Under the pieces are notes generated by a model that was given only the letters and a program-made list of their open reading frames with translations, ran no database searches and was not told the DNA's origin. The translations under genes were made by a program, and so were the position numbers. A stretch of DNA of 64,000 nt, from positions 17,918,001-17,982,000 of the forward strand of contig OX597831.1 in the NCBI GenBank assembly GCA_951406725.2. The letters run 5' to 3'. Below, piece by piece: positions 55,029-55,134 of this stretch (positions are counted from its first letter, which is position 1; each line of letters starts with the position of its first letter). This stretch comes from Octopus vulgaris (Eukaryota).

Positions 55029-55134
55029 CTGCACTCCGCGGACACTCTCAGGTAGCGTGTCATTTCATCGTCGCAAGTTTCCCTTGCTTTAGCCTCGCAA
55101 GCATTCCAAGCGTCAGAGCCCGCGGTTGCTCCAC
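55029..55134 (-). CDS. Gene B exon 2 (106 nt): (G)GATAGSDAWNACEAKARETCDDEMTRYLRVSAEC(R/S)
   Basis: Acceptor ttttattttcaattcatag|, donor AG|gtatgc, GC-rich relative to flanks. Paralog of 10339-10444. Confidence 0.9.

Follow-up and report, generated by a model that had tools for sequence, protein, structure and literature searches.

The window, by which we mean the whole stretch of 64,000 nucleotides of Octopus vulgaris DNA that was analysed, holds two paralogous genes, here called A and B (Table 1). Both are in phase from a signal exon through exon 2 (Cys1-3), exon 3 (Cys4-6) and a micro-exon of 18-21 nt to a tail exon. The products of the family have about 105 amino acids and the cysteine spacing C-x7-C-x13-C-x8-C-x8-C-x9-C, and the last exon of A and B encodes a hydrophobic tail of 20-24 amino acids. 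According to hydropathy, the C-terminal tails of genes A, B, C and D are hydrophobic and lack a cytoplasmic part; since a signal peptide is thus combined with such a terminal stretch, the proteins are likely to be GPI-anchored. The tails of the K genes described below finish in charged residues, which we counted against this reading. A start of exon 3 at an upstream AG, which would turn A, C and D into pseudogenes, was rejected: the true phase-2 acceptor is located downstream of that AG, and what looked like stops belongs to the intron.

Table 1. Parts of genes A and B in window coordinates
Feature	Position	Strand	Remarks
Gene B, coding part of signal-peptide exon	56223..56262	-	13 codons + 1 nt, phase-1 donor; O. 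bimaculoides P0002 is laid out alike
Gene B, exon 2 (exon under study)	55029..55134	-	106 nt, phase 1 to phase 2, Cys1-x7-Cys2-x13-Cys3
Gene B, exon 3	35712..35796	-	phase 2 to phase 0, Cys4-x8-Cys5-x9-Cys6
Gene B, intron block of the original prediction	34878..34995	.	intron 3, about 120-240 nt ahead of the micro-exon
Gene B, predicted micro-exon	34736..34756	-	21 nt, phase 0-0; candidate GPI attachment region; placed by splice signals and position
Gene B, last coding exon	25328..25390	-	hydrophobic tail of 20 aa + stop; best 11-aa Kyte-Doolittle mean 2.15
Gene A, coding part of signal-peptide exon	20066..20105	-	paralogue of that of gene B
Gene A, exon 2	10339..10444	-	paralogue of gene B exon 2; three Cys
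Gene A, exon 3	1957..2044	-	open, in phase
Gene A, intron block of the original prediction	187..304	.	intron 3
Gene A, predicted micro-exon	28..45	-	18 nt; placed by splice signals
Gene A, last exon	740-814 nt left of window start		outside the window

A and B are an old pair whose introns now consist mostly of transposons. The 19-kb intron 2 of gene B (35900-51600) is made of nested LINE remnants of differing ages, one of which has further copies in the cluster at around 90-96% identity, and mariner-like remnants lie at 11900-13200 and 33950-34590. Two pairs of long inverted repeats (3860-4421 with 4749-5312, 95%; 61519-61689 with 62515-62685, 94%) are probably miniature transposons. Ahead of the signal ATG, genes A-E have in common a short motif and an AG-like site (56301-56400 and 20153-20260, minus strand), which are either promoter/5'UTR sequence or the acceptor of an undiscovered non-coding first exon. 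Between the last exon of gene B and the start of gene A there is an orphan copy resembling a signal-peptide exon (23137-23289, minus strand), which lacks a clean donor and is probably what is left of a paralogue that has disappeared. A degenerate copy of the last exon and 3'UTR of an upstream paralogue lies at 57646-57869 (minus strand), and a broken exon-2 copy with an in-frame stop, F, is found just past the window end.

The two genes belong to a cluster of at least 1.1 Mb. In 1.264 Mb around the window we found 28 exon-2 matches at E<1, on both strands, the outermost lying 600 kb to the left and 493 kb to the right of where the window starts; 23 of them reach E<0.01, many of these being seeds, and the five weaker ones retain the cysteine spacing. 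Broken copies, with the pseudogenes K2 and F among them, and recent segmental duplicates are also present. Two further irregular copies are found at L013:5602-5700 and L013:1121-1201: in paralogue G exon 2 is followed by a GC donor and Cys5 is missing, and in paralogue H exon 3 was not located and a gap of 100 N adjoins.

Regarding known relatives, 1.84 billion proteins (50% protein library) were searched with a profile built from 14 exon-2 copies, and three of them matched, namely O. vulgaris CAI9735849.1 and the products of the O. bimaculoides loci LOC128249931 (XP_052830515/6) and LOC128249942 (XP_052830540-2), whose public names are only 'uncharacterized' or 'hypothetical'. These three entries share the signal peptide, the same six-cysteine spacing, the linker and the hydrophobic tail with the cluster, and the best matches of the O. 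bimaculoides loci are K5 and H. The O. bimaculoides RefSeq models P0002-P0006 match the exon layout of A and B; one isoform, P0003, lacks the tail, and a micro-exon of the K type occurs in P0006. Searched against the genome, P0006 gave 13 matches, 11 inside the cluster and two elsewhere at E ~0.5. The public O. vulgaris model CAI9735849.1 (P0001) is chimeric, joining exons that belong to three adjacent paralogues, and therefore the annotation hides the family. The family does not appear in the literature that we searched, also by LOC identifiers, although the genes may be listed in supplementary tables to papers on cephalopod genomes and transcriptomes; the part of PMC7656900 that was available describes no such family. 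The family and this instance are thus new to the papers searched, whereas the divergence-peak mechanism discussed below is already known.

Comparison of genes A and B

The original prediction held that exon 2 of this pair is more diverged than the introns, on invariant cysteine codons, and took this as a sign of positive selection. Its counts reproduce: exon 2 is identical at 60/106 nt without gaps and at 12/35 amino acids (11 of the 34 full codons and the split first Gly), with a single synonymous change among the conserved residues, at a Tyr. The intron block is identical at 90/118 positions ungapped and at only 28-48/118 when slid by 1-3 nt; it sits in intron 3, away from exon 2. The cysteine codons of exon 2 are all TGC in both genes, but there are three per gene and not the four that had been counted, and those of exon 3 also match (TGT, TGT, TGC).

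Nevertheless, the contrast itself did not survive as an argument. The alignable non-coding DNA of A and B, in a collinear chain covering 2,400 of the roughly 19,600 unmasked bases of gene A, is 71% identical (1703/2400). Simulated DNA with a true identity of 56% and regional rate variation yielded 2,740 aligned bases at 71.7%, so that the observed 71% could be obtained either from a true identity of 70% or from 56% with such variation. Global gapped alignment of the splice-anchored flanks gave no signal, as shuffled controls reach 61-68%. Because the simulation at 56% identity reproduces it, the difference between intron and exon in this pair is not separable from ascertainment bias.

The substitution ratios of the pair are not decisive either. 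For exon 2, dN/dS was 1.41 by counting (bootstrap P(pN<=pS)=0.175) and 2.23 by maximum likelihood (p=0.18 against 1); for exon 3 it was 0.38 and 0.18 respectively, with purifying selection at p=0.046, and for both exons joined 0.80 and 0.88. We discounted a two-sequence M1a/M2a test with p=0.026, since its class value of 56 is implausible. Furthermore, exon 2 of gene B is GC-shifted relative to A (28 against 11 weak/strong differences, p=0.009), and such a shift can mimic selection. Therefore, with a dN/dS that is not significant, a contrast that bias reproduces and this GC shift, the A/B pair cannot carry the claim of selection. Among 19 copies, exon 2 of gene B has the highest GC content (58%) and CpG count (9), possibly through GC-biased conversion or through selection for Ala, Gly and Arg.

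Identity along the K genes

The K subfamily consists of five genes located 110-305 kb left of the window. Their exons 2 and 3 are mostly 56-78% identical; for exon 3 alone the range is 56-72% in 9 of the 10 pairs, and K1/K3 reach 90%. In the 3' cassette, 2.7 kb counted from the exon-3 donor, windows of 100 columns are mostly 93-100% identical, around the signal exon the figure is 87-99%, and toward exons 2 and 3 identity declines over some 300-600 nt. The same appears in the tree lengths: intron 3 has 0.07-0.11, the intron sequence directly beside the exons reaches 0.45-0.56, and the two exons themselves reach 0.86 and 0.95. The silent sites of the exons have diverged like the exons themselves (tree dS 0.70; 13/40 four-fold sites pooled), that is, around ten times more than intron 3, which suggests that the introns have been homogenised. 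Read depth over the cassette was 186-256 in DNA run X3, which differs by around 1% from the window, against 50 at gene B; since this is 4-5 times the single-copy value, the cassette is truly multi-copy and no assembly artefact. As for RNA, the exons occurred in no tissue-labelled run; X1, X5 and X7 gave no exon joints on K4, and the small share of X1 consisted of transposon and intronic pieces, which says nothing on expression. In the pseudogene K2, on L032 some 208.8-208.9 kb to the left of the window, exon 2 is interrupted by a stop and exon 3 has given way to unrelated sequence, yet the homogenised 3' cassette is retained.

A cross-species comparison, made at the protein level with a single O. 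bimaculoides locus and with orthology taken from the best match, gave the relative ages of the parts. K5 shares with P0006 25/32 amino acids in exon 2 and 22/27 in exon 3, against 12-17/32 and 12-13/27 with its four sisters (for the whole ectodomain, 47/59 against 25-29/59). In the signal peptide K5 agrees with P0006 at 13/19 positions and with the sisters at 14-18/19, in the tail at 13/19 and 17-19/19, and over signal, micro-exon and tail together at 34/47 and 41-43/47 respectively; the contrast between orthologue and sisters has a Fisher p of 4e-4 to 4e-3. As the ectodomain of K5 is nearer P0006 and its signal peptide, micro-exon and tail are nearer the sisters, the ectodomain lineages predate the split of the two species, dated to around 34 million years in the available part of 10.1101/2023.05.16.540928, and the cassette is younger.

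The informative sites of K0, K3, K4 and K5 (four of the five genes, K1 being omitted as a near-duplicate of K3) change their genealogy at exon 2. Both flanks favour one split (11/12 sites upstream and 11/13 downstream) and exon 2 favours another (11/14), with a permutation p of 5e-5 for these four genes. The switches lie at most 27 nt upstream and at most 56 nt downstream of the coding block.

These data bear on the reading offered by the original prediction, namely accelerated point substitution after a recent duplication, in the style of snake phospholipases and conotoxins, where the introns give the true age and selection alone has raced the exons. It would account for the lower identity of exons 2 and 3 compared with alignable non-coding DNA, which we saw in each of the 20 gene pairs that had 300 or more aligned bases (some of the chains include shared transposons), and for the classes of sites with high dN/dS reported below. 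Nevertheless, we consider it improbable, because divergence at silent sites and in the intron sequence beside the exons exceeds that of intron 3 by a factor of 5-10, which selection on the protein cannot cause, and because the exons of K5 predate the split from O. bimaculoides and yet its tail matches that of its sisters. The youngest duplicates, in addition, have no excess of changes in their exons. Selected sites are supported for the family, but most of the contrast between fast exons and slow introns probably comes from homogenised introns.

A known counterpart is found in the primate red/green opsins, which, in the part of PMC3924837 that was available, have introns nearer their paralogues, a selected exon nearer its orthologues and a divergence peak on that exon; RHD/RHCE and the clustered protocadherins are cited there as further divergence peaks under gene conversion. 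The K genes likewise have a peak on the exons that decays into the flanks, a mosaic genealogy, non-selected parts resembling the paralogues and selected exons resembling the orthologue. They differ from the opsins in their number of at least five copies, in the divergence of two whole exons to 56-78% identity and in having a homogenised signal exon on one side and a homogenised anchor cassette on the other. By this analogy the family evolves like the opsins and other converted recognition families, and its likeness to toxins is limited to hypervariability. It is plausible that a history of conversion and selection like that of the K genes also applies to A and B; among genes A-E themselves gene conversion was demonstrated nowhere.

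Selection and cysteine codons across the family

Site models were fitted with our own GY94 implementation, using branch lengths taken from M0 and rescaled. The exon-2 models covered 16 of the 20 curated copies, after dropping K2 (stop) and K3, R3 and R5 (identical or near-identical), with eight more distant copies also left out, and the exon-3 models covered 15 of 16, without G, which has no Cys5. M2a was preferred to M1a for the 16 exon-2 copies (p=2e-5, with 45% of sites at 2.5; p=6e-4 when double-base changes are allowed) and for exons 2 and 3 of the five K genes (p=9e-4, with 24% of sites at 5.4; p=7e-3 with double-base changes). Across the models, the site classes above 1 had a dN/dS of 2.3-5.4. 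Exon 3 of the K genes was significant alone (M8a/M8 p=0.0025), and their exon 2 alone gave p=0.43 with three sequences and 0.003 with four. The signal in exon 3 of the whole family was weak (M1a/M2a p=0.031, M8a/M8 p=0.058, M7/M8 p=0.48). As for calibration, 1 of 53 neutral simulations exceeded the 5% cut-off and none reached the observed value; when double-base mutations were simulated and left unmodelled, 7 of 47 neutral sets exceeded the cut-off and 1 reached the observed value. Positive selection, as originally proposed, is therefore supported by the site models of the family, but it is not significant in the A/B pair alone.

An account without positive selection would hold that constraint acts on no more than the cysteines and a handful of core residues while the rest drifts, and that conversion and a heterology barrier, with GC-biased conversion in gene B, make the contrast. 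The dN/dS of the family under M0 (1.02 for exon 2 and 0.53 for exon 3), the joined value of 0.8-0.9 for A and B, the GC skew of gene B exon 2 and the existence of the pseudogenes K2 and F are what it would lead one to expect. We hold it to be unlikely, since M2a beats M1a even with double-base changes and since the conversion tracts end within tens of bases on either side of exon 2. Moreover, exon 3 of the K genes is AT-rich (27-35% GC), so GC bias is no explanation there.

In the six youngest exon comparisons the exons were no faster than their flanks (14/540 against 114/3550), and close relatives had 1 change in 106 nt of exon against 18-21 in around 2,040-2,190 nt. As these show no excess in the exons, hypermutation or a current burst is disfavoured.

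The cysteine codons had been described as invariant, and as a trait of the family this does not hold. Although the residues C12, C20 and C34 are unchanged in 14/14 aligned exon-2 copies, 11 of the 57 exon-2 cysteine codons in 19 copies are TGT. In pooled pairwise comparisons, whose pairs are not independent, codons differed in exon 2 at 91/316 cysteines against 51/203 other two-fold residues and in exon 3 at 100/234 against 100/303, so that cysteine codons differ no less than the others. Conotoxins behave similarly in the available part of PMC3823881, with no extra conservation of cysteine codons once homology is corrected for. A targeted mutational process that raises the rate over exons 2 and 3 and spares the cysteine codons would fit the high divergence of the silent sites of the exons and the identity of all six cysteine codons between A and B. 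This process is scarcely credible, given that the cysteine codons vary like other two-fold codons, that young duplicates and close relatives have no excess in the exons, and that the switches of genealogy require recombination.

The explanation that we favour, and consider probable, is a tandem family of variable surface binders of around 105 amino acids, likely GPI-anchored, in which conversion homogenises the non-coding DNA and exons 2 and 3 are held apart by diversifying selection. Tandem duplication would have produced the gene copies, and diversifying selection would have pushed the residues between the cysteines apart. Ectopic conversion, which we infer to be the copying process, would then have kept overwriting the signal exon, the introns and the anchor cassette between neighbours. 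Tracts that erased an ectodomain exon would have been removed by selection or stopped by heterology, and this may be what halts them at the exon edges.

Nature and possible role of the proteins

The predicted folds of two models of O. bimaculoides relatives (gene B itself was not the input) are all-helical, with a pLDDT over residues 21-70 of 84-93 in the better model and 73-84 in the other. Pfam returned 0 families for four single exons and only sub-threshold hits for three full proteins (PAR1 at E 0.003, Cauli_VI, CM2 and CX9C), and a PDB sequence search gave no match. Foldseek found no match at E<=0.001, the best Z in VIA was 3.7 and the Atlas structure rows all had TM <0.5; as they were run, these fold and family searches leave room for a known fold. 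In alignments A3 and A5, which are mixed and out of register, the first helix encoded by exon 3 is readily matched by the second one of exon 2, which hints at a putative internal duplication within the six-cysteine domain.

Neuritin (CPG15, NRN1) is a small helical, GPI-anchored protein with a signal peptide and six cysteines, and its family is conserved and has one or two genes. Of the named clusters, both Atlas searches placed it nearest, with scores of 0.82-0.83, a range that a third of shuffled proteins reach. The octopus family resembles it in the signal peptide, the six cysteines, the helical domain and the GPI-type tail (judged by hydropathy on the octopus side), but differs in the cysteine spacing and in not being a conserved family of one or two genes. 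The neuritin family of Pfam, PF15056, had no match at E<=1 on P0001-P0003 and none in the genome when searched exon by exon, which is insensitive, and the literature searched contained nothing on neuritin together with octopus. The octopus family is thus not shown to be neuritin, and the modelled likeness may serve as a lead. Three-finger proteins of the Ly6/uPAR type have eight to ten cysteines and a beta-sheet fold; membership in this group was rejected on account of the six cysteines, the two all-helical models and the lack of a Pfam match.

The original prediction also drew an analogy with conotoxin and snake-toxin genes. Those genes, in the available part of PMC3862624, combine a signal exon that is conserved with mature exons that vary strongly on a fixed cysteine frame and with introns conserved within a family, and the octopus family has in common with them a hypervariable, positively selected mature region on a fixed cysteine frame. 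Nevertheless, the analogy fits poorly. The three-exon conotoxin layout of that source, an anchor-free precursor of signal, propeptide and mature region, is not that of the octopus genes, where the cysteine domain directly follows the signal peptide without a propeptide exon and the precursor finishes with a GPI-like hydrophobic stretch. A reading as secreted peptides of venom or saliva, built on a fixed cysteine frame, is therefore very unlikely. The signal peptide, the small disulfide domain and the hypervariable loops would agree with it, and the tail-less O. bimaculoides isoform P0003 would be secreted; but A, B, C, D and the main RefSeq isoforms carry the C-terminal tail, the predicted fold is all-helical, and there was neither a Pfam family at cut-off nor a PDB match. 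The family is probably not a conotoxin-like venom.

As for function, we rank first, tentatively, the recognition of a fast-changing external partner, for instance microbes or parasites. A neuronal or sensory surface label or channel modulator would be a less likely role, gamete recognition is doubtful, and venom would come last, at a very low probability. More speculatively, and with less than an even chance, the cluster could be a megabase octopus recognition locus of variable exons in a constant chassis. There the exon of promoter and signal and the GPI cassette would be overwritten between copies, and the ectodomain exons, whose age exceeds 34 million years, would have been kept as separate specificities of a novel helical mini-domain, serving as a code for self/non-self, pathogens or cell identity and possibly derived from a neuritin-like ancestor.

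Few molecules of immune, self/non-self and gamete recognition are known in cephalopods. The approximately 28 small putative surface proteins of this cluster, with ectodomains that are old, selected and hypervariable, are a concrete and easily expressed set of candidates for recognition. In addition, the K genes offer a natural example, unusual in its sharpness, of exons kept apart by selection despite gene conversion, with switches of genealogy only tens of bases from the exon. Finally, exons faster than introns are often taken as accelerated evolution of toxin genes, and this family warns that such a pattern may arise mainly because the introns have been made younger.
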